Assembly: GCA_028699085.1 (NCBI GenBank)
Contig: JAQVVF010000005.1
Location: 79-64,078 of the forward strand
Origin: Patescibacteria group bacterium
GTDB taxonomy: Bacteria > Patescibacteriota > JABMPQ01 > JAQVVF01
Length of the DNA: 64,000 nucleotides
Direction: 5' to 3'
In this document: piece by piece, positions 12,292 through 39,214 of the stretch
Position numbering within the stretch: the first letter of the stretch is position 1
Layout: every line of letters starts with the position of its first letter
Made by a program: the position numbers and the translations under genes
The notes under the pieces: model-generated
Databases searched by the model: none
Told to the model about the DNA's origin: nothing
What the model saw: only the letters and a program-made list of their open reading frames with translations

Positions 12292-12702
12292 CTAGATTTT
12301 ATTTGATAGAACTTTTTTAATTCTATGCATCAAATCAGCAATCTGCCATGGTTTTGAAATTGTGAATCTAGCTCCGGAATTTACTGCATCAGCAAGACTT
12401 TTGCTATCACTACCTGACAATATCGCCGTAATAACTATTTTTCGATATTCAGTTTGTTTTTTAGACAGAAAGCGGATTATTTTTATCAAATCAAGACCCA
12501 TTAGTCTAGGTAAGGATAGATCTATCAGAATCAAATCCGGAATATTATCTTCCAACCATTTTAAAGTATCAAAACCATCATTTTCAATATGCACCATATA
12601 TCCTTCTCGCTCTAATAGATCCTTAAGCCTCTGAACAAACAGCGTTTTACCTTCGCTATCAGCAATCAAAATTAGTTTAGGACGTTGTATTTCCTGGCTC
12701 AT
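12292..12702 (-). CDS. Orphan response-regulator receiver (CheY-like) domain protein
   Basis: REC-domain pattern (LILIADSE...DLILIDLSLP...K). 136 aa. Canonical AAGGAGGA SD 5 nt upstream of the ATG. Confidence 0.75.
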   Translation of the reverse strand: MSQEIQRPKLILIADSEGKTLFVQRLKDLLEREGYMVHIENDGFDTLKWLEDNIPDLILIDLSLPRLMGLDLIKIIRFLSKKQTEYRKIVITAILSGSDSKSLADAVNSGARFTISKPWQIADLMHRIKKVLSNKI

Positions 12703-12760
12703 TTTTTCCTCCTTGATTTTAAAGAACTTCTTTCTATTTTAATCCAAAAATAAATAAAAG

Positions 12761-12786
12761 CAAAAAAAATAGATCAAAAATGATCT
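12761..12786 (-). terminator. Putative rho-independent terminator downstream of the tRNA cluster (hairpin readable on both strands)
   Basis: Palindrome agatcaaaaatgatct at 12771..12786, followed on the minus strand by a T-run. Confidence 0.45.
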
Positions 12787-12814
12787 GTTTTTTATTAAAA
12801 TAATTTTATTTAAA

Positions 12815-12887
12815 CGGGCCGGACGGGACTTGAACCCGCGACCTTCTCCGTGACAGGGAGACGTGAACTCCGCTTCACTACCGGCCC
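12815..12887 (-). tRNA. tRNA-Asp (GTC)
   Basis: Cloverleaf with anticodon loop CTGTCAC, GGTTCAAGTCC T-arm and 7-bp acceptor stem GGGCCGG/CCGGCCC. No encoded CCA. Confidence 0.85.
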
Positions 12888-12927
12888 AAATTTATTTCTC
12901 AATGGTTTGCATCACAGATTATATCAA

Positions 12928-13001
12928 TAGCAGGGGACGGATTCGAACCGTCGACCGCCACTTTATGAGTGTGGTGCTCTAACCAACTGAGCTACCCTGC
13001 C
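12928..13001 (-). tRNA. tRNA-Met (CAT), elongator type. Could alternatively be tRNA-Ile2 (lysidine).
   Basis: Anticodon loop CTCATAA, D-arm GTAGCTCAGTTGGTTAGAGC and T-arm GGTTCGAATCC. The anticodon stem lacks the three G-C pairs of an initiator. Confidence 0.75.
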
Positions 13002-13090
13002 TCAAAACAAATAACTAAATTATAAATTAAAAATGACAAAATTTAGAATCGTAAATTTTTCATTTATAATTTAGTTATTTTTAATTCAAA

Positions 13091-13164
13091 ATTGCGGGGG
13101 GCGGATTTGAACCGCCGACCTTCAGGTTATGAGCCTGACGAGCTTCCAAGCTGCTCTACCCCGC
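13091..13164 (-). tRNA. Initiator tRNA-fMet (CAT)
   Basis: The sequence CGCGGGGTAGAGCAGC...GGCTCATAACC...GGTTCAAATCCGCCCCCCGCAA closely resembles bacterial tRNAfMet, including a C1:A72 mismatch. Confidence 0.85.
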
Positions 13165-13605
13165 GATAATACGTATATTATATATTAAACAATAAAAAAA
13201 GCAAGTTCACTTGCTCCTATCGATTATTGATGCAATATAAAATTATTTAGGTCCGAAAAAATATTTTAATAACGGCAAAATAGCATAAAAAATAAATGCC
13301 AGAATTGCCACTAAAATAAGATAAACTCTCAAAATTTTTGCTTCTTCTAACATTTGATCCAAAGTCTAATTACATAAATCAAAGTAAACAACAAAACAAT
13401 TGTCGTGCATGCAAAAAATAATAGTAGTTTTTCTGTTAATTCCATGACTTTAGTGATTAGTAAATAAGTAATTAGTAAGTAGTAAGTCATCTATATTATA
13501 AATAATATTTAAAAAGATGGCAACCTTTTAATTAATGATAATTCTTGTTAAACTGATAGAGAGCGATAACTAGTTACTAGTCACTTATTTACTAATTACA
13601 AAAAT

Positions 13606-14817
13606 ATGCTTACATTTTTACTTATCTTGACATTGATCTTGGTTTTAACTTGTGGCTTTTTAGCTTTCAATTTAATTAAAATTAATAAAAAGTTAGCAGA
13701 GCCTACGGATAATGAGAATGACAAAATTTTGCACGAGCGCATCGATAATTTAAATCAATATGTATCTCAGAATTTAAATCAAACTAACAAATCAATTTCT
13801 GAAAATTTGAATCAAGTTACCAAAACAATGTTAGCCCAAATAAGCTCTCAAACTACTCAACTCAATGAGCGCTTAAAAGAGAATAGTGAATTAATCCAAA
13901 AATCTCAAGGAACTGTTGGTTCGCGTTTAGACAATGCTGCCAAAGTCGTTAGTTCTGTCCAGACAAAATTAGCGCAAATGGAAGAATCAAATAAAAAGAT
14001 TTTTGAAGTCGGTAAAGATATTAGAGGTTTGCAAGAAATTTTGAAAGCTCCAAAACTTCGTGGATCTTTGGGAGAATTATTTTTAGGTGATTTATTATCT
14101 CAGACTTTTTCTAAAAATCATTATCAAGAACAATACATGTTCAAATCAGGTGAAAAAGTTGATGCCGTTATCAAGTTAAAAGATAATATGCTTGTTCCAA
14201 TTGATGCAAAGTTTCCATTAGAAAATTTCCATAAGATGATCAATTTAGCCAAGAATGATCAGGAAAAAAAGATGTACAAAAAAATGTTTAAAGACGACGT
14301 CAAAAAACACATTACCGCAATTTCCAAAAAATATATTTTGCCAGATGAAGGCACAATTGATTATGCTTTGATGTATATTCCAGCTGAAAATGTTTACTAT
14401 GAAACAATAATCAGAGATGAAGATGAAAATAATTTAGTTAATTTTGCTTATACCAAAAAAGTATTTCCAGTTTCTCCAAATTCACTCTACATCTATGTCC
14501 AAGCAATTTTACTTGGCTTAAAAGGCATGCAAATTGAAGAAGGAGCTAAAGACATGATGAATTATATTCAAAGATTGCAAGGTGATTTCAATAAGTTTGA
14601 AGATGACTTTAGTGTTCTGGGAAGTCACTTAAATAATGCCCACAAAAAATTTGATGATAGTGAAAAAAGATTAGGCAAGTTTCATGACAAACTAATCGAA
14701 ATTGATAGCAGAATTCCTCAGCCTGAAAAAATAGTTGTAGATAAAAAAGCTTTACCAATTAAGCCAGAAGTTGCTGTGCAAGTTACAGGGCAAGAAAACA
14801 TTAATTTATATAATTAA
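13606..14817 (+). CDS. rmuC: DNA recombination protein RmuC
   Basis: N-terminal TM segment, long coiled coil and an RmuC core (LRGSLGELFLGDLL...). 403 aa. Confidence 0.75.
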   Translation: MLTFLLILTLILVLTCGFLAFNLIKINKKLAEPTDNENDKILHERIDNLNQYVSQNLNQTNKSISENLNQVTKTMLAQISSQTTQLNERLKENSELIQKSQGTVGSRLDNAAKVVSSVQTKLAQMEESNKKIFEVGKDIRGLQEILKAPKLRGSLGELFLGDLLSQTFSKNHYQEQYMFKSGEKVDAVIKLKDNMLVPIDAKFPLENFHKMINLAKNDQEKKMYKKMFKDDVKKHITAISKKYILPDEGTIDYALMYIPAENVYYETIIRDEDENNLVNFAYTKKVFPVSPNSLYIYVQAILLGLKGMQIEEGAKDMMNYIQRLQGDFNKFEDDFSVLGSHLNNAHKKFDDSEKRLGKFHDKLIEIDSRIPQPEKIVVDKKALPIKPEVAVQVTGQENINLYN

Positions 14818-17678
14818 TGCTTAAAGATCTCAATTTACAACAACGCCAAGCAGTCATGCATCAAAAAGGTCCACTCCTAATTGTTGCAGGCGCTGGCACA
14901 GGAAAAACAACAGCCATTACTAAAAAATTGGCTTATTTAATATTGGAAAAAAAAGTAAAACCAGAAAATATTTTAGCTTTAACTTTCACTGAAAAAGCAG
15001 CTGCTGAAATGGAGGAGAGAGTAGACAAATTAATGCCTTATGGCTATACCGATCTTTGGATTGAAACTTTTCATAGTTTTTGTGACCGGATTTTGAAAGA
15101 TAATGCTCTGGATATGGGGCTAGATCCAAATTACAAATTATTAACATCCGCAGAGCAATGGATGTTCATCAAATCAAAAATTTTTGATTTTGATTTAAAA
15201 TATTATCGACCATTAGGAAATCCAAATTCTTTTATTTCAGAATTAATCAAACATTTTTCGCGTGCCAAAGATGAAAATATTTTGCCAGATGAATATTTAA
15301 AATTTGTCAAAAAATTAAAACCAAACGATGATCTTGATCAGGAAGAAATTGATAAGATATCGGAAATAGCCAAAGCTTACAAGCAATACCAAGAATTAAT
15401 GGTTAAAGAAAGCCAAATGGATTTTGGAGATTTGATTATTCAAACTTTAAGCTTATTAAAAAAAAGAAAGCATCTTCTCAAAAAATATCAAAAACAATTC
15501 CAATATATTTTAGTTGATGAATTTCAAGATACTAATTTCGCTCAATATCAATTATTGCAGCTTTTAGCTCCTCCTCAATTGAATTTAACCGTTGTCGGAG
15601 ATGATGATCAAGCAATCTACAAATTCCGTGGCGCTTCTGTTAGCAATATTTTGCAATTTCAAAAAGATTTTCCCAAAAGCAAAAAAATTGTGCTAACAGA
15701 AAATTATCGTTCAGTTCAGCCGATTTTAGATTTAGCTTATAATTCAATTCAACTTAATAATCCAGATAGATTAGAGGCACAATATAAAATTAATAAAAAA
15801 TTAAAATCGCAAATTAAGTTAACAGACGATTTAGCAATTAATCATATTCATAAGGCAACTTATGAACAAGAAGCAGTAGAAGTCATTAAAAAAATTATTG
15901 AAATAAGACAGAAAGATAAGTCAAGCTGGTCAGACTTTGCTATTCTGGTTCGCGCTAATTCTTCTGCCGAAATTTTCATTAATTTATTATCTTCCAAGAA
16001 AATTCCATATCAATTTGTTGCTTCTCGCGGTCTTTATTCTCGTCCAGAAGTTATGGATTTGATTTCGTACTTACGGGTTGTCGCCAATTTTTATGATGAT
16101 ATTAATTTTTATCGCGTCTTAAGTTTACCAATCTTCAATCTAAATTCAGAAGATATTATTAGATTAGTTGCCTACAGTCGCCGTAAAAATTTAAGCATTT
16201 TTGATTTAGCTAGTACTCCAAGCAGAATAGTCGGCTTGAATAAAGAAAGCGCAGAAAAATTTAAAGTCGTTGTTGAATTAATTAAAAAGCACTCAAAACT
16301 TAGTCTAGAAAAAAATGCTGCTGAAGTTTTATTAGATTTTTTAAGAACATCAGGTTATCTAAAATATTTGCAGGCCAATAAAGATTTAGAAGCAGAAAAA
16401 AAGATTCTGAACATTTCTTTATTTTTTAAAAGAATACAAGAGTTGCAAGAGAACAAAAAATTAACAGTTCCAGAATTTATTGATCAATTAGATTTGATGA
16501 TTGAAGCAGGCGAAGATCCATCGCCAATCCAATTAGACGAAGGCCCAGATAGCGTTAAAATTCTAACCATCCATTCTGCAAAAGGTTTAGAGTTTGATAA
16601 TGTTTTTGTTGTTAACTTAGTTGAAGGAAAATTTCCATCTCGAAATAGAAAAGATTTAATTGAATTGCCAGAAAAATTAATCAAAGAACAATTACCAGGT
16701 ACAAATTCCAATATCCAAGAAGAAAGAAGACTCTTTTATGTTGCGATGACTCGCGCAAAAAAAAGATTATTTTTTACATCTGCCAACGATTATGGCGGTA
16801 AAAGAAAAAAGAAAATATCCAGATTTTTAGTAGAAATTAAAAAGAATATTGATAATTTAGATGATGCAACTTTGAATAATTTGCCTGATTTTAAGACTGA
16901 TGGTAGGGAGCAAAAAAATATTAATTTATCAGCAAAAAAAATAAAATATAAGTTGCCGATCAAATTTTCGTATACGCAGTTAAAAGCTTTTGAAACTTGT
17001 CCGCATCAATATCGCTTTCGTCATATTATTGGTTTACCATCATCAGGCGCTGCTTCTCAAAGCTATGGCAAAACAATGCATGCAGTTTTACAAAACTTTT
17101 TTTCAGATCTCCAAAAAGGAAAAAATCCAACCAAAAAAGATTTATTAAGTTATTACGAAAGTTTTTGGATCAATGATTTTTATCAAGATAAAAAGCACGA
17201 ACAAAAAAGATTTACCGAAGGCAAAAAAGCTTTATTAGAATTTTACAAAATAAATAAAAATAATTTAAAAGCGCCATTATTCTTAGAAAAAGGATTTAAT
17301 TTAAGAATTAAAGATACTTGCCTAAAAGGACAAATTGATCGTATCGATAAATTATCTGATGACACAGTGGAAATTGTGGACTATAAAACCGGCAAACTAC
17401 CAAAGAATGAGAAAGACGTTGAAAAAAATGAACAGTTGTTGATTTATTCTTATGCTTGCCAAAAAGTTTTAAATTTGAAACCATCAAAACTAAGTCTCTA
17501 TTTTATTGATCAAAACAAAAAATTTACTGCCAAGCAAAATCCTATTAAAGAAGAAAAAATAATTCAAAAAGTCCAAGAATTGATTGCTAAAATCAAAGAA
17601 TCTGAATTTAGCGCTAAGCCAGGCTTTGCTTGTAAATTTTGTGATTATAAAGATATCTGTGAATACGCTAGCAGGTAG
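14817..17678 (+). CDS. UvrD/PcrA-family ATP-dependent DNA helicase with C-terminal PD-(D/E)xK (Cas4/AddB-like) nuclease domain
   Basis: Walker A GAGTGKTT. UvrD motifs (DEFQDT, TIHSAKGLEF). C-terminal IDRID...DYKTGK plus CxxC..C cysteines (FeS-type nuclease). The start overlaps the rmuC stop (TAATG). Confidence 0.85.
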   Translation: MLKDLNLQQRQAVMHQKGPLLIVAGAGTGKTTAITKKLAYLILEKKVKPENILALTFTEKAAAEMEERVDKLMPYGYTDLWIETFHSFCDRILKDNALDMGLDPNYKLLTSAEQWMFIKSKIFDFDLKYYRPLGNPNSFISELIKHFSRAKDENILPDEYLKFVKKLKPNDDLDQEEIDKISEIAKAYKQYQELMVKESQMDFGDLIIQTLSLLKKRKHLLKKYQKQFQYILVDEFQDTNFAQYQLLQLLAPPQLNLTVVGDDDQAIYKFRGASVSNILQFQKDFPKSKKIVLTENYRSVQPILDLAYNSIQLNNPDRLEAQYKINKKLKSQIKLTDDLAINHIHKATYEQEAVEVIKKIIEIRQKDKSSWSDFAILVRANSSAEIFINLLSSKKIPYQFVASRGLYSRPEVMDLISYLRVVANFYDDINFYRVLSLPIFNLNSEDIIRLVAYSRRKNLSIFDLASTPSRIVGLNKESAEKFKVVVELIKKHSKLSLEKNAAEVLLDFLRTSGYLKYLQANKDLEAEKKILNISLFFKRIQELQENKKLTVPEFIDQLDLMIEAGEDPSPIQLDEGPDSVKILTIHSAKGLEFDNVFVVNLVEGKFPSRNRKDLIELPEKLIKEQLPGTNSNIQEERRLFYVAMTRAKKRLFFTSANDYGGKRKKKISRFLVEIKKNIDNLDDATLNNLPDFKTDGREQKNINLSAKKIKYKLPIKFSYTQLKAFETCPHQYRFRHIIGLPSSGAASQSYGKTMHAVLQNFFSDLQKGKNPTKKDLLSYYESFWINDFYQDKKHEQKRFTEGKKALLEFYKINKNNLKAPLFLEKGFNLRIKDTCLKGQIDRIDKLSDDTVEIVDYKTGKLPKNEKDVEKNEQLLIYSYACQKVLNLKPSKLSLYFIDQNKKFTAKQNPIKEEKIIQKVQELIAKIKESEFSAKPGFACKFCDYKDICEYASR

Positions 17679-17739
17679 ACAAATTTTGATTTATTTATTA
17701 TAATCATCTTAAGATCTATATATTTTTGTTTTTAAAAAA

Positions 17740-18108
17740 ATGACACTTCGTTCATATTTATTAGGTATGTTCTTCTCCACTATTGTCTGTTGGCTTGCTT
17801 TTGGCTTAATTTTATATTATGTTAACCCTTACAATTCTGGAGCATTGGGCTTAATTGCTTTTTATATTAGTTTATTTTTTGCCAGTATTGGCACTTTGAC
17901 ACTTATTGGATTCTATCTACGTGTTTGGTTTTCCAAAAATGAAATTTTATTTGCTCATGTCAATCCATCTTTCCGTCAAGCAATATTATTATCGATAATC
18001 TTAGTTGGTTCATTAGTTCTACAAGCTTTTAGACTTTTAACCTGGTGGGATGGATCGCTATTCGTTATAAGTATTGTATTAGTAGAATTTTATTTTATCT
18101 CAAGATAA
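17740..18108 (+). CDS. Hypothetical small integral membrane protein
   Basis: 122 aa with 3-4 predicted TM helices. No recognised family. Confidence 0.4.
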   Translation: MTLRSYLLGMFFSTIVCWLAFGLILYYVNPYNSGALGLIAFYISLFFASIGTLTLIGFYLRVWFSKNEILFAHVNPSFRQAILLSIILVGSLVLQAFRLLTWWDGSLFVISIVLVEFYFISR

Positions 18109-18111
18109 TTT

Positions 18112-19152
18112 ATGCAAGATTTACAACAATTGAAACAACAGGCCTTAAATGAAATACGAAACGCTAATTCGACATCAACAGTTGAACAAATTAGAATTAA
18201 ATTTTTAGGCCGAAAGTCTGGTTTAGTCACAAAAATAATTCAGACTTTGCCAAGTTTGAGCGTTGATCAAAAAAAGAGGCTCGGACCATTAGCCAATCAA
18301 GTCAAACATAATATTAATCAAGCTCTAAATAATAAAATCATCGCTTTAAAATCTCCTGATCATCAGACAGGCGAATTTTTTGATACGACCTTGCCAGGCA
18401 TTCGACCAGAAATAGGGCATTTGCATCCAATCACTTTAGTCTCTCGTGAAGTCGAAGAAATTTTTAAATCAATGGGCTTTCAAGTTCACGAAGGAAATGA
18501 GCTAACTGATTTGCATTATAATTTTTTAGCTTTGAATTTTCCAAAAGATCATCCTGCCATGGATAGTTACGACACTTTTTTTATCGAAAATAAAGAAAAA
18601 GATATCAAATTAGAAAACAAAAGAGTTATGCGCGCTCATACATCAAACATGCAAGTCAAAATAATGGAAAGCAAAAAACCGCCATTGCGCGTGATTGTTC
18701 CAGGCAGATGTTTTAGAAATGAATCAACTGATGCTTCACATGAACACACTTTTTATCAATGCGAAGGGTTCATTGTAGATGAAAAAATTTCTGTTGCAAA
18801 TTTAATTTATACTTTGAAAGAATTTTTAAAAGCTTATTTCAAAAAGGATGAAGTTAAAGTAAGACTTAGACCAGGCTATTTTCCATTTGTTGAGCCAGGA
18901 TTTGAATTAGATTTTGAATGTATGATTTGTGGGGGAAAAGGTTGTCCAGTCTGCAAACAAACTGGTTGGGTAGAGTTAATTCCTTGTGGTATGATTCAGC
19001 AAAATGTTTTTAAATCAGCAGGTTATCCAAAAAATAAATATACTGGATTTGCCTTTGGCATGGGTTTAACAAGACTTGCAATGATGAAATATGGAATTAC
19101 TGATATAAGACTTTTTATGTCCGGTGATTTAAGATTCAATAATCAATTTTAA
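18112..19152 (+). CDS. pheS: Phenylalanine--tRNA ligase alpha subunit
   Basis: Class II aaRS motifs (FRNESTDASHEHTFYQCEG; GFAFGMGLTRLAM). 346 aa. Confidence 0.95.
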   Translation: MQDLQQLKQQALNEIRNANSTSTVEQIRIKFLGRKSGLVTKIIQTLPSLSVDQKKRLGPLANQVKHNINQALNNKIIALKSPDHQTGEFFDTTLPGIRPEIGHLHPITLVSREVEEIFKSMGFQVHEGNELTDLHYNFLALNFPKDHPAMDSYDTFFIENKEKDIKLENKRVMRAHTSNMQVKIMESKKPPLRVIVPGRCFRNESTDASHEHTFYQCEGFIVDEKISVANLIYTLKEFLKAYFKKDEVKVRLRPGYFPFVEPGFELDFECMICGGKGCPVCKQTGWVELIPCGMIQQNVFKSAGYPKNKYTGFAFGMGLTRLAMMKYGITDIRLFMSGDLRFNNQF

Positions 19153-19154
19153 TT

Positions 19155-29003: not shown

Positions 29004-29049
29004 TAAAATATAAATTAAATAAAAAAAGGCTAGTAATAGCCTTTTTATT

Positions 29050-29649
29050 TTAGGGTGCATTTTGTGTTTGTGATCTGATTAAATTAACAAATTCTTGGAT
29101 AGGTATATACATAATTCTTAAACCATTGAATTCTTTCAGAAAGGGCTGAATTTTTTCGTTTTCCATCCAAAAAGGTATCCAAAATTGTTTATTGCCATCA
29201 TTGATTTCTCTCAAGCAATAGAAAAGTCTTACAAACAATTCGCAAGCGCGAAAGATTCTACTCTCCATGCAATTTTCTTTTTGAATATCATAAATTAAAA
29301 GCAGTTTTTCTTGAAAATCAGCAGGTAAAAAGATAATCGCTTCTAAGAATTTTTCTCGCTCCAATCTTTCATCAGCTTCAGTTTTGTCCGGTTCTTGAAT
29401 ATCCCCAAAGCCATCCATTGCCTCTCCAAAATCATGAATTGTTCCCAAATCAGAAACAATTTCGCCATTAAACTTAACATCAGGATCGTATTTTTTGATC
29501 ATCGCTTTTGCCAGTTGAATAACAATGCCAAGCTTTATCGTATGCGCGGAAACATTTTCAAGATGTAATTTAGGAATATTTTTCCATCTTTGTTCATCTT
29601 GCAAGCCTTGTACAATTCTTACTAAACCTTCTTCAATCCGATGTGGCAT
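29050..29649 (-). CDS. HD-domain phosphohydrolase (YfbR-like 5'-deoxynucleotidase candidate)
   Basis: H...HD...D pattern (SAHT...IHDFGE...D). 199 aa. AAGGAGGA SD upstream. Confidence 0.6.
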   Translation of the reverse strand: MPHRIEEGLVRIVQGLQDEQRWKNIPKLHLENVSAHTIKLGIVIQLAKAMIKKYDPDVKFNGEIVSDLGTIHDFGEAMDGFGDIQEPDKTEADERLEREKFLEAIIFLPADFQEKLLLIYDIQKENCMESRIFRACELFVRLFYCLREINDGNKQFWIPFWMENEKIQPFLKEFNGLRIMYIPIQEFVNLIRSQTQNAP

Positions 29650-29826
29650 CCTCTTCCTCCTTTTCCCTCTTGTTTTTTTCTTAATTTTTTCTTAAAATAA
29701 AAAGAACACTCAAAATATCGATGATCAAAAAAAATGACAACGATTAGTTAAATTTAACATTTATTGAATAAGGAATCAATAATATAGTTATTTTAAATTT
29801 TTCGCTTTAAATTTTAATTTTGAAAT

Positions 29827-31266
29827 ATGTCAAACAAAAACAGCTGTCAAATTTACGTGTTGGAGGGATTAACGCCAGAAGTCCGAGCAGTCACTTTTGC
29901 CAAGTGTTCGCGTTCAGACAAATCTTTCAGGGAAATTGCCGCAGGCCTAACTGCCGAGAATTCTTCAAAATTCCATGAAAAATGGGTTGTTGGTTATGGC
30001 CATTCTTCAGTTGCTGAGCATGCTCCAATTTCGATTGCTATGGAAAATATTTCACTTCTTGCAGTAGAAGCAATCGAATCAAACCGTTTGGCTTCATATA
30101 CTGAAAAATCTTCTCGTTATCAAATTTATGATGAAGATCGAGTTTATTATCCAAAAGAATTTAAGCAAGATAAAGCGATCGACAAATTATTTCGCGATAC
30201 AATAAAATTACAGTTCGCTTTATATAAAAAAAGCATTAAGCCAATTCAAGAAATTATCTATCAAGAAAATCCAAAAGAAAAAGGCGAAGATCAAAAAGGT
30301 TATGAAGGCAGAGTAAGATCAAAATGGATTGATATGTGTCGTTATCTTTTGCCAAATGCTTGTTTTGCAAATTTAGGTATGACTGCAAATGCTAGAACTT
30401 ATGAAAATGCTTTAGTCAAATGGTTCTCGCATCCTTTATCTGAAGTACAAGAAATTGCGAAACAAGTAAAAAGAGAAGCTCTAAAAATTACTCCAACCTT
30501 AGTTAAATACGCTGATCCAAATAGCTATTTAATTGATTCTTACAAAATCTTGCCTAAAAAAGTAAAAACAATTTTAGGTGCAGAGAAAAAATATCTAGGC
30601 AAAGAAATTTTAGTTGAGTTAGTTGATTTTGATAAAGATGCTGAAAGAAAAGTATTAGCTGCGGTTATCTATCAATTCTCGAATATTCCATACAAAAAGG
30701 CTTATCAAAAAGCCAAAAGTTTAAAGAAAACTGACAAAGAAAAATTATTAGATAATATTCTAAAAAGAATCGGCAAGCATGACAAGCCATTACGTGCTTT
30801 AGAGCTTCCGTATTTTACTTTTGATTGCTTGATTGATCAAGGTGCTTATGCTGATTTAAAGAGAAATCGAATCATGACTCAACTACCACAAACTGTTACT
30901 ACAAAACATGGCTATTTTATTCCAAGAGCTTTTGTTTTGGCAGGTTTAGAAAAAGAATATAAAGAAGTTATGGAAGCAACAGATAAAGCCTTTAAAATAA
31001 TTTCCAAAAAGTTTCCTAATGAAGCAGGCTACATCGCTACAAAATCATATGGCCGTAGATTTTTGATGAAAATGAATCTTCGTGAATTATACTATTTCTG
31101 CTATTACAGAGGTGCAAATCCAGGTGGCCATGTTTCGTATCGTTTTGTCGGTACAAAAATGTATGAGCAAGCTTCTAAAAAATTTCCAACTTTAATGAAA
31201 TATCTACCATACATTTTTGATATGAATAGCAAAGAATTAAATAAATATTTTGAATATATTGCTTAA
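29827..31266 (+). CDS. ThyX-like (flavin-dependent thymidylate synthase family) protein, double length
   Basis: GHSSVAEH and NRLASYTEKSSRY resemble ThyX HxSVxEH and the RHRxxSxxxxSxRY motif (with H replaced by N). 479 aa, against ~250 aa for ThyX. Immediately upstream of tmk. Confidence 0.55.
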   Translation: MSNKNSCQIYVLEGLTPEVRAVTFAKCSRSDKSFREIAAGLTAENSSKFHEKWVVGYGHSSVAEHAPISIAMENISLLAVEAIESNRLASYTEKSSRYQIYDEDRVYYPKEFKQDKAIDKLFRDTIKLQFALYKKSIKPIQEIIYQENPKEKGEDQKGYEGRVRSKWIDMCRYLLPNACFANLGMTANARTYENALVKWFSHPLSEVQEIAKQVKREALKITPTLVKYADPNSYLIDSYKILPKKVKTILGAEKKYLGKEILVELVDFDKDAERKVLAAVIYQFSNIPYKKAYQKAKSLKKTDKEKLLDNILKRIGKHDKPLRALELPYFTFDCLIDQGAYADLKRNRIMTQLPQTVTTKHGYFIPRAFVLAGLEKEYKEVMEATDKAFKIISKKFPNEAGYIATKSYGRRFLMKMNLRELYYFCYYRGANPGGHVSYRFVGTKMYEQASKKFPTLMKYLPYIFDMNSKELNKYFEYIA

Positions 31267-31271
31267 ATTGT

Positions 31272-31904
31272 ATGAACAAAAATAGTTTTATTACTAATCC
31301 ATTTAAAGGCATATTTATTGCCTTTGAAGGATTAGATGGATCTGGGTTATCAACTCAAGTTGATTTATTAAATAAATATCTCAACAAACAAGGCTACAAA
31401 AGTTTTGCTACCAAAGAGCCAACCAATAATATAATTGGTGGTTTGATTCGAGGACTTCTCACTCATATCTGGAAAGCCAGCAATGAATGTTCGCAATTAT
31501 TGTTTACTGCAGATCGCGCCTTGCATTTAGAGAAAGAAATTATTCCAGCCTTAAAAAAGAAAAACATTATTATTACTGATCGCTATTTTTTCTCTACCGT
31601 TGCCTTTGGTTCGCTAAACATCAGAGATTTAGACTGGCTTGTTTCGCTTAATCAACATTTTATCTTGCCGGATTTAATTTTCTTAATTAAAGTTCCGCCA
31701 AAAGAATGTGTTAAGAGAATAAAGTCTTCAAGATTTCATAAAGAATTGTTTGAGGAAGAGATTAAGCTTAAAAAAATTTGGCGGACATATAACAAATTAG
31801 CTAAAATATTTCCGAATATTCACATTATTGACGGAAATCGTGATAAGAAAAAAGTTTTCGAAGAAATTTTTGAAATTGTAATAAAAAAATTAAAAAAGAA
31901 ATAG
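31272..31904 (+). CDS. tmk: Thymidylate kinase
   Basis: P-loop FEGLDGSGLSTQ, DRY motif and lid region. 210 aa. Confidence 0.85.
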   Translation: MNKNSFITNPFKGIFIAFEGLDGSGLSTQVDLLNKYLNKQGYKSFATKEPTNNIIGGLIRGLLTHIWKASNECSQLLFTADRALHLEKEIIPALKKKNIIITDRYFFSTVAFGSLNIRDLDWLVSLNQHFILPDLIFLIKVPPKECVKRIKSSRFHKELFEEEIKLKKIWRTYNKLAKIFPNIHIIDGNRDKKKVFEEIFEIVIKKLKKK

Positions 31905-31960
31905 TCTGTTAATTTTTGATATGGTATAATTCTGTAAGAATATAGAATATTGTTAAATTT

Positions 31961-33457
31961 ATGCAACAAAAATTAGAAACAATCATCGGATTAGAAATTC
32001 ATGTCCAGCTCAAAACAAAGTCCAAAATGTTTTGTTCATGTGATAATAATGCAGAAGGCAAGCAACCTAATTCTTTAGTATGTCCTGTTTGCATGGCTCA
32101 TCCTGGGACTTTACCAGTTATCAACCGCCAGGCAGTTGAATGGACAGTTATGACTGGTCTTGCTTTGAATTGTGATATCCCAGAAAATTCAAAATTTGAT
32201 CGCAAAAATTATTTTTATCCAGATCTTCCAAAGGGATATCAGATTTCTCAATACGATCAGCCTTTATGCATGGGAGGATATTTCGATATTTTAGTTAACA
32301 AACAAAACAAAAGAATTAATTTGGAAAGAATTCATCTTGAAGAAGATGCAGGAAAATTAACTCATTCTAAAAATATAGGTGCAAGTCTTGTTGATTATAA
32401 TCGAGCAAGTACTCCATTGATGGAGATTGTAACCAAGCCCGATTTTAGAAGTCCACTAGAAGCTAAAATATTTTTGCAAGAACTTCGTAATTTAGTTCGC
32501 TATATTAATGTTTCAGATGCTGATATGGAAAAGGGCCATCTCCGTTGTGACGCCAATATATCTATGAGACCTATTGGGACAACAGAATTATCTGCAAAGA
32601 CAGAATTAAAAAACATGAATTCATTCAAAGCAGTTGAAAAAGCTTTGACCTATGAAGTTAATCGTCAAACAAAGCTTTGGCAAGAAAATTGTCAGCCAAA
32701 ATATTCTGCAACCAGATTATGGAATGATGATCAGGAGCAAACAATCGAAATGAGAACAAAGGAAGCATCACATGATTATCGCTATTTCCCAGAGCCAGAT
32801 TTACCGCCTTTAAAATTAGATCAAGAATGGGTCAAAGATCTAAAACAGAAATTACCTGAACTTCCGCAAGCTAAAAAAAATAGATTTATTAAGCAATTTG
32901 GCTTATCAGAAAAAGAAGTTAATCTATTAATTTCAAACCGATTAATCTCTGAATATTTCGAAGATGTTCTAACGGAAACAAGAGCTTGGGTTGATGATTT
33001 AAAACAGAAAGAAGATGATTCGGAAAAGACTTACAAGGAATTAGTAAAAGTAGTTTCTAATTGGTTAACGTCAAAATTGTTTGCTTTATTAAATTCAGAA
33101 AAAATTTCAATTTCAAATTGCAAGATAACACCAGAAAATTTTGCTGAACTTTGCGCCATGCTTTATACTAACAAGATTTCTTCATCAGCAGGACAGCAAG
33201 TTCTAAAAATAATGTTTGATAAAGGTTCTGATCCATCTCAAGTTGTTGAAGAGCAAAATCTAGGTCAAGTATCTGACGAAAAAGAATTAGATACGATTTT
33301 AGATAAGTTAATTGCTGAAAATCCAAAACCAGTTGCTGATTTCAAAGCTGGCAACAAAAATGCTTTGCAATTTTTTATCGGGTTAGCCATGAAAGAAACA
33401 AAAGGCAAGGCAAATCCAAAAGTTGTTATTGATATTCTGACCAAAAAGCTATCTTGA
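31961..33457 (+). CDS. gatB: Asp-tRNA(Asn)/Glu-tRNA(Gln) amidotransferase subunit B
   Basis: MQQKLETIIGLEIHVQLKT...; GatB/YqeY C-terminal domain. 498 aa. Confidence 0.95.
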   Translation: MQQKLETIIGLEIHVQLKTKSKMFCSCDNNAEGKQPNSLVCPVCMAHPGTLPVINRQAVEWTVMTGLALNCDIPENSKFDRKNYFYPDLPKGYQISQYDQPLCMGGYFDILVNKQNKRINLERIHLEEDAGKLTHSKNIGASLVDYNRASTPLMEIVTKPDFRSPLEAKIFLQELRNLVRYINVSDADMEKGHLRCDANISMRPIGTTELSAKTELKNMNSFKAVEKALTYEVNRQTKLWQENCQPKYSATRLWNDDQEQTIEMRTKEASHDYRYFPEPDLPPLKLDQEWVKDLKQKLPELPQAKKNRFIKQFGLSEKEVNLLISNRLISEYFEDVLTETRAWVDDLKQKEDDSEKTYKELVKVVSNWLTSKLFALLNSEKISISNCKITPENFAELCAMLYTNKISSSAGQQVLKIMFDKGSDPSQVVEEQNLGQVSDEKELDTILDKLIAENPKPVADFKAGNKNALQFFIGLAMKETKGKANPKVVIDILTKKLS

Positions 33458-33563
33458 CTTGATAATAAAAACCTGTTATACTGCAAATAATGTGTATGCA
33501 AACAATGAACAGAAAATTTCGCTTCAATCACTTCTATCTCGGAGAATTATTTTAATCCCTTTA

Positions 33564-33589
33564 AAATCCGCTATCGAGCGGATTTTTTG
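33564..33589 (+). terminator. Rho-independent terminator after gatB
   Basis: Hairpin aatccgctatcgagcggatt followed by TTTTTT. Confidence 0.55.
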
Positions 33590-33639
33590 ATACTCGTGCA
33601 CCTTCCCAATTAATAGGAAAGAAAAGGAGGAAAAAGGAA

Positions 33640-34665
33640 ATGGCAACCGACAATATGCCTCAGATGTTTTTGGAAGATGTTGGTAGTTTGGTTCACTCGC
33701 ATGACGGTCAAAATGTTTGGTTGATCAAGGATTTAGATCAGCGCGAGGAATTTGAAGAATACATGTTGCCTCATGATATTTACGTCGTTGATTTTCCTGC
33801 GCTAGGAGTTGGCCAAAGATTTCTGTTAAGTCGTCATCTTTGCGGACCTGATAAGTTTTTCATGCTTCAGCAGATTGGTCATGCAATGGCAAAAATCTGC
33901 AAAAGAACGGGAATGTTTGATGGTGAAAAGCTGGCACAATTCATTATTCTTTACGGTGGTGAAGCCTACAACATGCATTTCTGTCAGCCACCTTTGGTTG
34001 ATGGAATCATGATTGATTCGACTTATATCAAATATGAACGAGTAGAGGATAGTACTCAGCAAAATGGTTTTAGGATCGAAAAACTCGCATTCTCCGGAAA
34101 ATGGTGGCAGGACAATATCTGGCTTTGTCTTGAAGAATGCGTTGCTTCTGGCAGTACAGTTGCGCATTTTGCAAAAGAAGGATTCGTAAATCATAAACCC
34201 AAGAAGCTTTTTATTTTTCCAGCTTGCGGTAGTTTCTTTGGCATTCAAGGAATCTATCAGGCTTGTTTGGAAAACGGAGTCGAGTTTGTTCCAGTATTCA
34301 ACTCTGCCTTGATTGATGTTGCGCCTGAAGGCTTGAAGCTTCCATATACTGATCTTGGCCTGCGTCCTCGTACGATCATGACTCGTGAATTCTGTGCTGC
34401 CGCGCGCCACCGCTATCAAGACACAAGCCTTTGTTTTGTGGGTGATATTGGAGATTCAATTCATCGTACCAAAAGATATATTATGGAAACTCTTGATGAC
34501 ATGCGATTGATTGGCTTTGATTTTGAAAGAGAGGATTGGAGCCGCTGGAATCCCAATGTTTTCTCCGAATATTTTCGCCAAAAGCTTGCAGAAGTATTTC
34601 CAGAAACGAGTCAACATTTTGAAACATTCTTATTCCGCGATTCTAGATTTCTGCTTTCCAAATAA
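33640..34665 (+). CDS. Hypothetical protein with a PRTase-like motif, probably horizontally acquired
   Basis: 341 aa. AAAGGAGGA SD. ~42% GC. IWLCLEECVASGST resembles the type I phosphoribosyltransferase signature but does not match it exactly. Confidence 0.45.
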   Translation: MATDNMPQMFLEDVGSLVHSHDGQNVWLIKDLDQREEFEEYMLPHDIYVVDFPALGVGQRFLLSRHLCGPDKFFMLQQIGHAMAKICKRTGMFDGEKLAQFIILYGGEAYNMHFCQPPLVDGIMIDSTYIKYERVEDSTQQNGFRIEKLAFSGKWWQDNIWLCLEECVASGSTVAHFAKEGFVNHKPKKLFIFPACGSFFGIQGIYQACLENGVEFVPVFNSALIDVAPEGLKLPYTDLGLRPRTIMTREFCAAARHRYQDTSLCFVGDIGDSIHRTKRYIMETLDDMRLIGFDFEREDWSRWNPNVFSEYFRQKLAEVFPETSQHFETFLFRDSRFLLSK

Positions 34666-34712
34666 TTTGTATACTATTATAAAACCGACTCTCATCGGTT
34701 TTTTCTTGGTTA

Positions 34713-35660
34713 TTATTTTAAAAAATTTTTAACTAATTTGTTTGCCTCATTATATTTTTCAATCCATTTTATTTTTTTATCTCTTTTAAACCAGCTTTCT
34801 TGCCGCCTAGCATATTGATGAGTATGAAATTTAATATTCTGAATAATTTCTGTTAAGATTTTTTTATCTTTAATTTTATTTAGCTTACCTTTAAATTCTC
34901 CATAACCAATTCCAGACATTGCTGGCAATTTCCAGGAATATTTTTTATTCAATTTCTTTAATTCTCTAACCAATCCGTTTTTAATCATTTGATCAACTCT
35001 TTTATCGATTCTTTTATATAATTTTTCGCGATCTACTTTAATACCAATTTGCAAAAAATTATATTTCTGTATACCTTTTTGTTGAAATTCAGAAAATGTT
35101 TTACCAGTCTTAATGCAAACTTCTAGAGCTCTAATAATTCTTCTTTTATTTTGTCGCTGTACAAAACTGGAAGCGTTATGATCAAGCTTCATTAATCTTG
35201 TCCATAATTTTTCAATATCCTGTTTTTCAAGATTTTTTCGAAATTCAAAATCAGGTGCGACTCTTGGAATCGTCAAGTTATCAACTAAAGCTTGAATGTA
35301 TAATCCTGTTCCGCCAACCAATATTGGCGTTTTGCCGCGTTTCAAAATATCATCAATAATTTTTTCAGCCTGTTCTTTAAATTCCGCAACAGAATAATTT
35401 TGATTAGGTTTAATAATATCAATCATATAGTGGTCAACATCGTCACTTACGACGATTTTTTGATTTTTGCCTTGCAACTTTTTAATTTTTACTTTTGACT
35501 TTTTAATTTTCGCAGTGCCGATATTCATGCCTTTATAGAATTGCCTTGAATCACAAGAAATAATCTCGCCATTATATTTTTTGGCTAATTTAATACCCAT
35601 TCCGGATTTACCGGAAGCTGTTGGGCCTAAAATGACGATAATTTTTGGTAATATTGACAT
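34713..35660 (-). CDS. miaA: tRNA dimethylallyltransferase
   Basis: P-loop GPTASGKS, ISCDSRQFYKGMNIGTAK. 315 aa. Confidence 0.9.
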   Translation of the reverse strand: MSILPKIIVILGPTASGKSGMGIKLAKKYNGEIISCDSRQFYKGMNIGTAKIKKSKVKIKKLQGKNQKIVVSDDVDHYMIDIIKPNQNYSVAEFKEQAEKIIDDILKRGKTPILVGGTGLYIQALVDNLTIPRVAPDFEFRKNLEKQDIEKLWTRLMKLDHNASSFVQRQNKRRIIRALEVCIKTGKTFSEFQQKGIQKYNFLQIGIKVDREKLYKRIDKRVDQMIKNGLVRELKKLNKKYSWKLPAMSGIGYGEFKGKLNKIKDKKILTEIIQNIKFHTHQYARRQESWFKRDKKIKWIEKYNEANKLVKNFLK

Positions 35661-35717
35661 ATAGAAAATTTTGTGATATAGTGTTTAGAAATTTATGACC
35701 ACTAAGAAGGAGGAAAA

Positions 35718-36170
35718 ATGGCTCATAACAGAAAGATAGCAGCAAAAGATCGAGACAAAGTAGTTAATTTCTGTAGAGAAAAGCTACAACAGATTTTACA
35801 TTTGATTGGACTCGAGTTAGAAGTCGGAAGCTATTTCGGAAAACTAGACAAGCACGGTGCTATTATTCTGGAAATTAAAAAGAGTCAAAATAATTCTGAT
35901 ATTGGTTTAGTCATCGGTCGATATGGCATTACACTATTCGCTATTAAAAAAATATTATCAGCAGCAACAATAAAAGAATTTGGTCATGATTATTACATTG
36001 AAATTAGAGCTGACAGATTTCGTTCTCGAGATCCAGTCAATTGCGTTTCTGTAGCTCAATTCATTGGCTGGGAAGTTCTTGAAGAACCAAACATAAATTC
36101 AAGAATCACATCAATATTTAACGAAGCGAAACAAGAACTCAAAAATTATGAACATTTGCACTCTGACTAG
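35718..36170 (+). CDS. KH-domain RNA-binding protein (Jag/KhpB-like core)
   Basis: GxxG KH motif in IGLVIGRYGITLFAIKKIL. 150 aa. AAGGAGGA SD. Confidence 0.5.
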   Translation: MAHNRKIAAKDRDKVVNFCREKLQQILHLIGLELEVGSYFGKLDKHGAIILEIKKSQNNSDIGLVIGRYGITLFAIKKILSAATIKEFGHDYYIEIRADRFRSRDPVNCVSVAQFIGWEVLEEPNINSRITSIFNEAKQELKNYEHLHSD

Positions 36171-36178
36171 GCTTGCGC

Positions 36179-37435
36179 CTAGTTTTTTATTTCTCCTTGC
36201 AAAATCCAAGCCATTGCTTTAGTTATTTTTACATTAACAATTTTACCAATCAAATCCTTATCAGAATTAAATTTAACTAATTTAAAAGTTCTAGTCCTGC
36301 CAATATCTTTTTTTTCAACCAGAATTTCGCAAGTTTTGCCTAAATATTTTTTATTATTTTTCAATGCTGTTTTTCTCAAAATATCATTCAAAAAATTTTC
36401 TCTCCTTTTCTTTTCGTCTTGTAAAATATCATCTTTCATTTTAAAAGATATCGTCCCAGGTCTTGGCGAATATTTAGCTAAAAAAGCCATATCATATTTT
36501 ACTTCTTTAAATAGTTTGCAAGTATCCAAAAATTGTTTTTTTGTTTCTCCTGGAAATCCAACAATGATATCTGTTGACAAACATGCATCTGGCAAATATT
36601 TTTTGATTGATTTAACAAGCTTCAAATATTTAGCATGAGTATATTTTCGATTCATCTTTTTTAAAATCACATCATTTCCCGCTTGAGCAGGCAAGTGAAT
36701 ATAATGGCAAACCCTTTTGCAATTTTTAATTGTTTTAATCAGTTTCAAGCTCATATCTTTTGGATGTGAGGTTACAAACCAAATCCAAAAATCGCCATCA
36801 ATATCATTTATTATTTTTAACAAAGCGGGGAAGTCAATTTTCTGATTATTAAACTTTCCTGAATAGCTGTTTACATTTTGTCCAAGCAAAGTTATAGCCT
36901 TATAACCTTGTTTAATAAGTGATTTTACTTCTTTGATTATTTCCTTTACTGATCTGCTAACTTCACGACCTCTTGAATATGGCACAACGCAATAAGAGCA
37001 AAAATTATTACATCCTGTCATTATTGGCACATAAGCATGAAATTTTGTTTGATATTTTGGCTGAAATTTTAAATAATTTAATGATCCAAGATCTTGTTGC
37101 AAAGTATTTTTATTTAAAATAATATCTGGCCATTTTTGTAAATCTTTAATATCCAAAACAAAATCTGCAAAATTTTTAAATCTTAATTTTTCTTTAACTG
37201 CAGAACATCCAGTTACAATCGCAACTTGCTTATTTTTCTTGGCATTTTTTAATGTCGAAATTGCTCTATTTTCAGCTGCCTGTCTTACAGAACAAGAATT
37301 TACAATTACAAAATCAGCTAAATTTTCTGAATTTACTTTCTTGAATTTTGCTGATAATAAAACCGTCTCAATTCTTTCCGAGTCAGAAATATTCATTTGA
37401 CACCCAAATGTTTTTATAAAAAATTTATTTTTCAT
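36179..37435 (-). CDS. miaB: tRNA methylthiotransferase (MiaB-like radical-SAM MTTase)
   Basis: UPF0004 N-terminal domain (FIKTFGCQMN), radical SAM CNNFCSYC and C-terminal TRAM. 418 aa. Confidence 0.85.
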   Translation of the reverse strand: MKNKFFIKTFGCQMNISDSERIETVLLSAKFKKVNSENLADFVIVNSCSVRQAAENRAISTLKNAKKNKQVAIVTGCSAVKEKLRFKNFADFVLDIKDLQKWPDIILNKNTLQQDLGSLNYLKFQPKYQTKFHAYVPIMTGCNNFCSYCVVPYSRGREVSRSVKEIIKEVKSLIKQGYKAITLLGQNVNSYSGKFNNQKIDFPALLKIINDIDGDFWIWFVTSHPKDMSLKLIKTIKNCKRVCHYIHLPAQAGNDVILKKMNRKYTHAKYLKLVKSIKKYLPDACLSTDIIVGFPGETKKQFLDTCKLFKEVKYDMAFLAKYSPRPGTISFKMKDDILQDEKKRRENFLNDILRKTALKNNKKYLGKTCEILVEKKDIGRTRTFKLVKFNSDKDLIGKIVNVKITKAMAWILQGEIKN

Positions 37436-37529
37436 ATCTTATTAAAATAACATAAAATTTTAGTCTTGACAAGGCAAGTTAATTATCATAATATTATACA
37501 TTGTAATTTCCAGCAAAGGAGGAGAAACG

Positions 37530-38102
37530 ATGAAAGAAATCCAACCAGTGAACCTTGATAATTATTATGATCTTGCCAAAATAAAAAAAGAGATTGCCAC
37601 AATGAACAAAAAAGTTAATCCTTGGTTAGTTGGTATTCTTTGCGCCATTTCAGCTATCTCATACTTCATTTTTGCGATAAGCGGTGAGAACAGGGTCATT
37701 GGCATCAGCAGTACGATCATTTTTTTGCTTACATTAGCCCCAACAGCATACTTTGGTATTCGTAAATTTGACCAAGTTATGGCTCGAAGTTTGATTGAAA
37801 ATCCTAGCACTTTATACAATAAGCTCTGCATTCAAATCTGTCTGTGGGCAGATTTCGTTAATGCGCAAATTGCTGAATTTAATAGCATTTTGATAAATCA
37901 ATCAGCTGGCGAGTTACAAATCGATTTACTCGAACAGGCGACTGCTCTCGAATCAAAAAAGCGCCAGTTAAACGTTTTTCTAGAAAATCTTTATCGAGTA
38001 AAATCAGTTGATTTTCATCCCAATAATCTTAAAATGATGATTGCTGAGCTAGAAGAAAAAATCAGATTTGAAAATCAAATCAAGGCCATTACAATCGAAT
38101 AA
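37530..38102 (+). CDS. Hypothetical membrane/coiled-coil protein
   Basis: 190 aa. Two TM helices then a coiled coil. AAAGGAGGAG SD. Confidence 0.4.
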   Translation: MKEIQPVNLDNYYDLAKIKKEIATMNKKVNPWLVGILCAISAISYFIFAISGENRVIGISSTIIFLLTLAPTAYFGIRKFDQVMARSLIENPSTLYNKLCIQICLWADFVNAQIAEFNSILINQSAGELQIDLLEQATALESKKRQLNVFLENLYRVKSVDFHPNNLKMMIAELEEKIRFENQIKAITIE

Positions 38103-39211: not shown

Positions 39212-39214
39212 TAT

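Follow-up and report, generated by a model that had tools for sequence, protein, structure and literature searches.

The 64,000-nucleotide (nt) stretch analysed here, hereafter the window (positions 79 to 64,078 of contig JAQVVF010000005.1, assembly GCA_028699085.1), has a GC content of 32% and encodes approximately 56 proteins and three tRNAs, the latter being the only RNA matches in an Rfam scan. Pfam and NCBIfam matches identify a type I restriction-modification (RM) block, a FabG-like short-chain dehydrogenase/reductase, ZupT, an FAD oxidase, a superoxide dismutase, RmuC and UvrD/PcrA; PheS/T, GyrB, SecE, NusG, a CarS-like protein, a CDP-alcohol transferase and ribosomal proteins L11 and L1; a fused ThyX, Tmk, GatB, MiaA, MiaB, ThrS and DnaE; and large PKD/DUF4214 surface proteins, FtsW, ribosomal protein L25 and the start of an atp operon. 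Set among these are seven genes, the subject of this report, that are preceded by a very strong Shine-Dalgarno (SD) sequence and are here termed SD-led, the other 49 being SD-less (Table 1).

Table 1. SD-led units and the SD-less contrast class in the window (aa, amino acids; pairing energy in kcal/mol against the canonical anti-SD; spacer, nt from the end of GGAGG to the ATG).
Feature	Span	Strand	Promoter-like site	SD	Spacer	Pairing energy	ATG	Gene	Terminator-like hairpin
Unit 1	12292..12714	-		AAGGAGG 12708-12714	5	-11.4	12702	REC, 136 aa, 12292-12702	12278-12252
Unit 2	21625..23064	-	TTGACA-17-TAATAT 23064-23036	AAGGAGG 22987-22993	5	-11.7	22981	443 aa, 21650-22981, GC 43%	21643-21625
Unit 3	25240..25477	-		AGGAGG 25472-25477	6	-10.2	25465	60-aa open reading frame (ORF), 25283-25465	25256-25240
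Unit 4	29023..29740	-	TTGTCA-17-TATTTT 29740-29712, with conserved ~60-nt leader	AAGGAGG 29656-29662	6	-11.6	29649	HD, 199 aa, 29050-29649	29046-29023
Unit 5	33624..34702	+		AAGGAGG 33624-33630	9	-11.6	33640	341 aa, 33640-34665, GC 41%	34681-34702
Unit 6	35654..36184	+	TTGACA-17-TATAGT 35654-35682	AAGGAGG 35707-35713	4	-11.7	35718	KH-like, 150 aa, 35718-36170	36165-36184
Unit 7	37466..38128	+	TTGACA-17-TAATAT 37466-37494	AAGGAGG 37516-37522	7	-11.6	37530	190 aa, 37530-38102	38113-38128
SD-less class	239..63997	both				-6.0 or weaker		49 genes, including rplK, rplA, rplY, secE, nusG, gyrB, pheS/T, thyX, tmk, gatB, miaA/B, thrS, dnaE and atp genes	

The heptamer AAGGAGG, the exact complement of the canonical ...CCUCCUU tail of 16S rRNA (taken as canonical for this lineage), occurs six times in the window, three times on each strand, and every copy lies just 5′ of an ATG, as does one AGGAGG, with 4-9 nt between the end of GGAGG and the start codon. 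The count itself is at chance level (6 vs. 4.3 ± 2.1 in shuffles, both strands), but the placement is far above it: sites 3-9 nt ahead of an ATG that starts a frame of at least 60 codons make up only 1.9% of positions, and all six heptamers are so placed (P ~5e-11). Pairing energies were computed against the canonical anti-SD (ACCUCCUUA), which may not be the lineage's own 16S tail; the Rfam scan found no 16S gene in the 64-kb window, and exact-protein look-ups past the window ends led to a 1.7 kb contig or to nothing, reaching no rRNA gene. With that tail assumed, the seven genes pair at -10.2 to -11.7 kcal/mol and the other 49 at -6.0 or weaker (mean +0.27 kcal/mol), the gap between the classes being empty. 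Purine content over positions -20 to -1 is 0.84 in the former and 0.52 in the latter, and no hidden strong SD was found at alternative in-frame starts within the first 66 codons of the 49 genes, the strongest candidate reaching -7.1. Translation start signals in the window genome thus fall into two discrete classes: about 12% of window genes have a near-maximal SD, AAGGAGG(A) in a purine-rich tract, and about 88% have none.

An earlier note on this DNA, made from the letters alone, had set seven strong-SD genes against SD-less core genes, a contrast that is borne out and proves sharper than it was stated. The note's description of the signal, AAGGAGG at 4-7 nt from the ATG, fits six of the genes in its letters, the seventh having AGGAGG, and the distance extends to 9 nt at the gene beginning at 33640. 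The scan it had proposed, of anti-SD complementarity over positions -20 to -1 against third-position GC (GC3) and codon usage, was run for the window and returned a bimodal distribution of energies, together with a difference in composition that is described below.

Each SD-led gene in the window has the layout of a self-contained monocistronic unit, comprising a leader, an SD, an ORF and a predicted terminator. Terminator-like hairpins lie within approximately 30 nt 3′ of all seven genes, and sigma-70-like promoter-like sites lie 28-62 nt 5′ of most of them. Four of the seven (21650, 25283, 29050 and 35718) are antiparallel to both flanking genes; the REC gene is antiparallel to its protein-coding neighbour and on the same strand as the adjacent tRNA cluster, and the 341-aa and 190-aa genes each share the strand of one neighbour. 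In unit 6, the -35 hexamer TTGACA (35654-35660) overlaps the start codon of miaA on the opposite strand (ATGTCAA, the reverse complement of TTGACAT), so that a divergent promoter-like site is embedded in the first miaA codons, an arrangement conserved in a sister genome. A TTGACA-type promoter was considered as a second mark of the SD-led class and dropped, since the sigma-70-like sites of secE and gyrB are equally good.

The products of the seven genes are varied. Unit 1 encodes a single-domain response regulator (PF00072, E=8e-16) and unit 4 an HD/YfbR-like phosphohydrolase (PF12917, E=2e-9), while the unit 6 protein has a weak KH-domain match, below the Pfam gathering cutoff, and the unit 7 product is a predicted membrane protein. 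The 341-aa product of unit 5 is predicted to be a phosphoribosyltransferase-fold protein, its AlphaFold2 model (mean predicted local distance difference test score, pLDDT, of 86) giving Foldseek matches to uracil and hypoxanthine phosphoribosyltransferases in the PDB at E ~1e-5. For the 443-aa protein of unit 2, the model (pLDDT 60) was too poor for a fold search, and a PDB sequence search gave no credible match.

The SD-less class comprises operon first genes, operon-internal genes, the type I RM island and several Pfam-less hypotheticals in addition to the core genes, so the divide is not simply one between known genes and orphans. The upstream context of these genes is rich in A (63, 78, 69 and 51% at positions -6 to -3) with T at -1 in 69%, and G is scarce throughout (0-8% from -10 to -1). 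Leaderless mRNAs were considered as an account of this class and rejected, since operon-internal genes are SD-less too and the promoter-like sites of first genes lie well upstream, 12-55 nt 5′ of the start (e.g., gyrB, secE); a -10-like box 7 nt from the ATG was seen in one gene only (60054).

The sample consists of one chromosomal neighbourhood, represented by the ~64 kb window and ~80 kb of partly overlapping sister sequence. The name ‘Patescibacteria group bacterium’ is attached at NCBI to a protein identical to the REC product and to a homologue of the 443-aa protein, and depositor labels on the nearest metagenome-assembled genomes (MAGs) conflict (Saccharibacteria, Patescibacteria or Gammaproteobacteria); we treat the source as a poorly classified lineage of the Patescibacteria, or candidate phyla radiation (CPR). 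A Bacteroidota origin, suggested by the A-rich contexts, was rejected on the evidence of the protein names and the nearest relatives. Gene order is common to the window and three independent sister assemblies, which together make up the four assemblies referred to below: contig CAZNOH010000004 of GCA_964574655.1 (the sister MAG; loci L002, L068 and L070), a 645 kb JGI/NCBI contig (L066) and an ENA contig (L062). A metagenome scan for further relatives, by alignment to the CDP-alcohol transferase, gave at least one locus, of 1.4 kb, among the matches listed.

Five of the seven SD-led genes (REC, 443 aa, HD, 341 aa and 190 aa) are syntenic in the sister genome, three of them also in a further sister assembly, and across the 13 orthologous leaders of these five genes in the four assemblies GGAGG is invariant, although the spacer to the ATG varies in both sequence and length. 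Between the window and L002, identity at four-fold degenerate sites is only 27-41% in the SD-led genes, compared with ~47-65% in neighbouring genes. The invariance of GGAGG alongside diverging spacers and four-fold sites shows, at the level of sequence comparison, that the SD core is under purifying selection and that the class is conserved across species. Individual loci follow this pattern: in the sister MAG, AAGGAGG is retained ahead of the REC orthologue (L070 10001-10414, 65% aa identity), the 341-aa orthologues in L002 and L062 keep GGAGG and a GC content of 41-42%, and the 190-aa orthologue in L002 (49% aa identity) keeps GAGGAGG. In unit 2, three genomes share the SD and a 31-nt promoter block without a single difference, the proteins being 54-81% identical, and the ~60-nt leader of the HD gene is nearly identical in three genomes whose HD proteins are only 58-67% identical.

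The two classes are also discrete within the sister assemblies. Three of the 20 genes called in L066 are SD-led, at -11.6 to -12.2 kcal/mol, the rest pairing at -3.1 or weaker; they encode HD, a 114-aa Cys-rich secreted protein and a 533-aa homologue of the 443-aa gene product, and all three are antiparallel to both neighbours. In L062 the sole SD-led gene is the 341-aa orthologue. Loci L002, L068 and L070 contain SD-led orthologues of the REC, 443-aa (here 442 aa), HD, 341-aa and 190-aa genes, together with a 611-aa membrane protein gene, two zinc-ribbon ORFs and three tandem Cys-rich secreted paralogues; for two SD-led genes of these loci (the HD and 113-aa calls) the called start must be moved to the SD-led ATG. 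Members of the Cys-rich family (L068 5025-6290, L066 7289-7633) have an MRK(T/A)GLL signal peptide and a CCW.D motif and occur as one to three tandem copies adjoining secE, each with its own strong SD; the public call of the middle copy starts too early, the SD-led ATG lying 23 codons further in.

More distant relatives (L003, L005 and L007, with MiaA 37-52% identical) are SD-poor as well; in comparable slots, one or two small ORFs are SD-led. A crude census of fetched loci put the share of strong SDs at 38-53% in Firmicutes-type loci, mostly 0-8% (17% in one case) in Bacteroidota and 11-25% in the lineage described here, and a Peribacteria locus had no strong SD in 15 ORFs.

These comparisons bear on whether the pattern is an artefact, in which AT-rich purine runs arise by chance and genes or starts were picked for the motif. 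The total of AAGGAGG, no higher than in shuffles, would agree with this, as would the 60-aa and KH-like ORFs, which are without orthologues (for the former, none was found). Against it stand the placement of the motif, the conserved orthologues of five genes, the three Pfam matches (two above the gathering cutoff) and public-collection gene calls, made by others, that give the same starts; repeated in four independent assemblies, the pattern already refutes an explanation by chance, which we find scarcely credible.

SD-led genes differ from their neighbours in more than the leader. Amino acid identity to the sister MAG is 49, 58, 65, 80 and 81% for the five SD-led orthologues and 82-97% for 23 SD-less proteins, among which a Pfam-less 122-aa protein reaches 97%; identity to L066 is 54-67% for SD-led and 83-99% for SD-less proteins. 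By these measures, the SD-led genes evolve faster than their neighbours. They are also richer in G and C: mean GC is 0.372 in the SD-led and 0.323 in the SD-less class (p=0.0013), and GC3 is 0.317 and 0.237 (p=0.0015), respectively. TTA makes up 17% of their Leu codons, compared with 48% in the SD-less class, and Lys 6.9% of residues, compared with 10.8%, while Arg and C- and G-ending codons are more frequent. The raised GC reported in the earlier note therefore applies to the group, but not the range of 35-45% given there for all seven genes, three of which, at 33.7-34.0%, fall inside the core range.

Some of the positions occupied by SD-led genes turn over between species. Between miaA and miaB, the KH-like gene of the window gives way in the sister MAG to a pair of SD-led zinc-ribbon ORFs unrelated to it, with both the flanking terminator and the start of miaA conserved; the slot adjoining secE contains the 60-aa ORF in the window and the unrelated SD-led Cys-rich secreted proteins in sister genomes; and the HD gene of the rplA/thyX slot is missing in L062.

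Features of this kind are those expected of acquired genes, and the earlier note had offered horizontal transfer as one of two explanations, the SDs being retained donor signals. According to this account, the seven genes came recently from SD-using donors of higher GC content (host bacteria, phages or plasmids) and their SDs have no particular job. Their GC, GC3 and codon usage are indeed atypical for the genome, core-flanked slots are occupied by different, non-homologous SD-led genes from one species to another, L062 is without the HD gene, and relatives of the 341-aa protein, a family of 15 members, are found in unrelated contexts, some of them next to genes for a cbb3 oxidase or an ABC transporter in genomes that use SDs and have a GC content of 36% and 50%. 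This last distribution makes an old transfer of the 341-aa gene, in one direction or the other, likely. However, passive and recent transfer agrees poorly with the synteny of five genes out of seven, with the conservation of promoters and leaders, with a GGAGG that is invariant (13/13) while four-fold sites are near saturation, with SDs that are uniform and near-maximal rather than heterogeneous, and with a GC3 that is raised in every lineage without decay. Neither do the searches point to a source. The 443-aa family is tiny (5.8 billion proteins contained six members, and 1.84 billion contained three strong cluster representatives), so that no outside donor is visible, and by these searches it is restricted to this lineage; no relative of the 443-aa, 341-aa, HD or 190-aa protein turned up when viral contigs were scanned, matches in PHROGs and PADLOC were limited to generic REC or zinc-ribbon entries, and no integrase or transposase was found among the annotated neighbours of any of the seven genes, nor any flanking repeats.

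The type I RM block (453-7845), which follows a small helix-turn-helix gene and encodes an HsdR-like protein, a fused methylase/specificity protein and an AAA_13 ATPase, is the best candidate for recent transfer in the window. Its function is typically mobile and it was probably acquired; its GC is 31-38% (~37-38% for the two RM enzyme genes) and its third-position composition resembles that of the SD-led class, yet no gene in it has an SD, which argues that foreign composition alone brings no SD in the window genome. We therefore regard passive leftovers of recent transfer as distinctly unlikely and set aside the donor-signal reading, although an older foreign origin is possible for some SD-led genes, because of the occurrence of the 341-aa family in unrelated SD-using genomes, the atypical codon usage and the non-homologous replacement at slots. 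The description of the seven as orphans holds only in part, since three have Pfam matches (REC and YfbR-like HD above the cutoff, the weak KH below it) and five have syntenic orthologues.

The other explanation in the earlier note, a distinct translational regime for accessory genes, is the one we favour, given a discrete and selected class that is reproduced in four assemblies; its purpose we infer. We consider it probable, though well short of certain, that the SD-led genes constitute a separate, selected class of SD-dependent initiation on accessory genes in an otherwise SD-less genome. The 16S tail of the lineage would be canonical (...CCUCCUU) and able to pair with mRNA; on native genes, unstructured A/U-rich leaders would bring in the ribosome with no SD pairing involved; and selection would keep a very strong SD on accessory genes, giving efficient recruitment of ribosomes that is independent of the native context. 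The set so marked appears to include nucleotide-salvage-type enzymes (the HD nucleotidase-like and phosphoribosyltransferase-fold proteins), the REC protein, membrane proteins and small secreted proteins. Part of the set may be of outside origin, in which case the SD would now be a maintained feature and no leftover, and the class could be either constitutively strong or switched by the availability of the anti-SD.

In coding sequences, SD-like words are rarer than in synonymous-codon shuffles (GGAGG 16 vs. 32.6; AGGAG 27 vs. 48; AGGAGG 2 vs. 11.9), while control words are undepleted (GGTGG at 0.96 and CCTCC at 1.16 of expectation), an indirect sign of an active anti-SD that is supportive only.

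Several points weigh against SD-dependent initiation on a selected accessory class. The depletion of SD-like words is incompletely specific, other G-rich purine pentamers standing at 0.5-0.8 of expectation. A single neighbourhood was sampled, and the proportion of SD-led genes and their content hold for the sampled region only. Some CPR bacteria (Parcubacteria) lack the anti-SD motif altogether (PMC9297842), and pairing here is assumed from a canonical tail. Finally, compensation by the SD for structured 5′ ends was considered as its role and rejected, the trend in predicted minimum free energy being weak and non-significant (-5.9 kcal/mol in SD-led vs. -4.5 in SD-less genes, p=0.09).

The purine tract could instead, or in addition, be bound as an operator by a regulatory RNA-binding protein, for instance a CsrA-like one that recognises GGA or a KH protein, so that the genes sharing it would form a post-transcriptional regulon. 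The motif does lie within longer, near-pure purine tracts that contain several GGA triplets (ahead of the HD gene, for instance, CAAGAGGGAAAAGGAGGAAGAGG), the purine content of the SD-led leaders is high, as given above, and the whole 60-nt HD leader is conserved, beyond the SD. However, a position of 4-9 nt from the ATG and an exact complement to ...CCUCCUU are those of a textbook SD, the tracts beyond GGAGG are unconserved between different genes, and the window proteins that were scanned include no CsrA-family member. An operator of this kind seems to us very unlikely.

If strong SDs do mark a separate class, consequences follow for annotation and for the biology of these presumed symbionts. 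A strong SD would flag flexible, lineage-specific genes in these CPR genomes, and gene finders trained on one signal would misplace the starts of the other class, as in the HD and 113-aa calls of the sister MAG. A bacterium that depends on a host could plausibly make use of nucleotide-salvage-type enzymes and of small secreted Cys-rich proteins. With leaders that are short and clearly delimited, and with the contrast class adjacent in the same genome, the question is testable in cell-free systems.

Other features of the neighbourhood were recorded alongside these. In the segment 26426-28112 the order is nusG, a CarS-like gene (CDP-archaeol synthase family, PF01864), rplK, a CDP-alcohol phosphatidyltransferase gene and rplA, and the interleaving of the CarS-like and CDP-alcohol transferase genes in the secE-nusG-rplK-rplA cluster is kept in all three sister assemblies. 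Ribosomal protein L1 (28203-29003) is called at 266 aa with its Pfam domain beginning at residue 70, a long N-terminal extension that is kept in the sisters (271-276 aa), and ThyX (29827-31266) is a 479-aa protein with two Thy1 stretches, apparently a tandem-fused flavin-dependent thymidylate synthase, whose length is likewise kept. Inteins differ between the genomes: GyrB of GCA_964574655.1 (L068 6312-9671) has 1119 aa and an intein-splicing domain, and UvrD of the 645 kb genome (L066 16767-20744) has 1325 aa with Hint/intein domains, whereas window GyrB (23195-25237) and UvrD (14817-17678) are without an intein. Between rmuC and the tRNA-Met/Met/Asp cluster (13243-13490, minus strand) lie two small hydrophobic ORFs, both SD-less, of ~32 aa from a MELTEK... 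start and 36-39 aa (MLEEAKIL...), with almost identical copies in the sister MAG.

At a larger scale, cumulative GC skew peaks near 34 kb (window ~34000-41000), and genes are mostly on the plus strand from 0 to 34 kb, mostly on the minus strand from 41 to 57 kb and on the plus strand again after 58 kb. This switch could be a replication terminus or merely a coding-strand purine bias; in the 645 kb sister contig, the homologous region spans 275-297 kb. Repeats include a perfect CTGTTAA x3.7 tandem array (60510-60535) just 5′ of rplY, AATTTCT/TAGAAAT repeats (58759-58902) 5′ of ftsW and a 33-nt repeat x2.3 (57216-57290) inside a YtxH-like gene.

The literature searched contains no account of such a split in Patescibacteria, nor of an SD-marked accessory class, and the arrangement is best placed by comparison with systems that share parts of it. 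AAGGAGG with A-rich flanks at a spacing of 4-9 nt is what ordinary SD initiation in Firmicutes or Escherichia coli looks like and would be a strong site in any SD-using bacterium. SD-users, however, have graded SDs on most genes, notably those for ribosomal proteins and other highly expressed products; here, neither the ribosomal protein genes nor any other native gene has one. Genomic islands resemble the SD-led class in raised GC3, shifted codon usage, patchy families and slot turnover, but SD-led genes stand singly, each alone in its own slot between core genes, with no mobility genes or flanking repeats; their synteny and their regulatory regions are conserved across species, replacement being limited to the 60-aa and KH-like genes; and the sole island-like block in the window, the RM block, is SD-less. 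In Actinobacteria and Deinococcus, leaderless and leadered mRNAs coexist in one genome, which likewise gives two discrete initiation modes split by gene class, but the SD-less genes described here are not leaderless.

CPR bacteria have reduced ribosomes and include Parcubacteria without an anti-SD motif (Tsurumaki et al. 2022, PMC9297842). Belonging to the same superphylum, they make SD-independent initiation plausible for a CPR lineage. Loss of the anti-SD, however, would leave the conserved strong SDs of the window lineage unexplained, and this lineage keeps uL1, while the group lacking the anti-SD overlaps the group lacking uL1 (PMC9297842).

The closest known parallel is found in Bacteroidia, of whose system the window lineage is no member. 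Ribosomes of Flavobacterium johnsoniae are SD-blind and its rpsU has a strong SD, through which rpsU is controlled by ribosomes lacking bS21, with the anti-SD as the switch (Jha et al. 2021, PMC7797042; McNutt et al. 2023, PMC9976891; PMC13000453). A corresponding explanation can be framed for the window: the anti-SD would normally be sequestered on the 30S platform, which would explain the native genes' lack of SDs, and strong-SD mRNAs would be translated efficiently only by a subset or state of ribosomes with a free anti-SD, for example those lacking bS21, so that the accessory set would be switched on together under particular conditions. In its support, the architecture is Bacteroidia-like, with SD avoidance, upstream adenines and a few exceptionally strong SDs (PMC7797042, PMC9976891, PMC13000453). 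In the sampled region, 49 of the 56 genes are SD-less, and the strong SDs are conserved and all-or-none instead of graded, which, together with the depletion of upstream G, would be consistent with most genes actively avoiding SD pairing; the strong SDs of Bacteroidia are known to be functional.

The differences are nevertheless considerable. The taxon here is labelled Patescibacteria and has TTGACA/TATAAT sigma-70-type promoter-like sites; about one sampled gene in eight (~12%) is SD-led, compared with essentially one per genome in F. johnsoniae; and the strong SDs precede accessory genes for REC, HD, phosphoribosyltransferase-fold, KH-like, membrane and unknown proteins, and not rpsU or rpsR, which, like rpsF and the 16S gene, lie outside the window. 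Pairing is ~-11 to -12 kcal/mol for a 9-nt tail, with no extended pairing seen. The depletion of SD-like words within genes suggests that elongating ribosomes see SDs, which fits a free anti-SD better, and the pocket of bS21, bS18 and bS6 that sequesters the anti-SD in Bacteroidia is hypothetical for the window lineage. A regulon read by specialised ribosomes is thus rather unlikely in our judgement, and we would grant similarly little to the idea that the anti-SD is a switch, the SD-led genes being a translational regulon of fast-evolving accessory or host-interaction genes that is on when the 16S tail is available (e.g., on bS21-free ribosomes). If true, that idea would extend the specialised-ribosome principle of Bacteroidia from one autoregulated gene to a gene class in an unrelated ultra-small symbiont.

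Why most bacteria keep an anti-SD when genes do not use it is a standing question, for which autoregulation of rpsU in Bacteroidia was previously the sole worked example of a few strong SDs in an SD-less genome. The lineage described here would provide a second, independent case with a different logic, in which an accessory class keeps the strong SD and the ribosomal and housekeeping genes have none.

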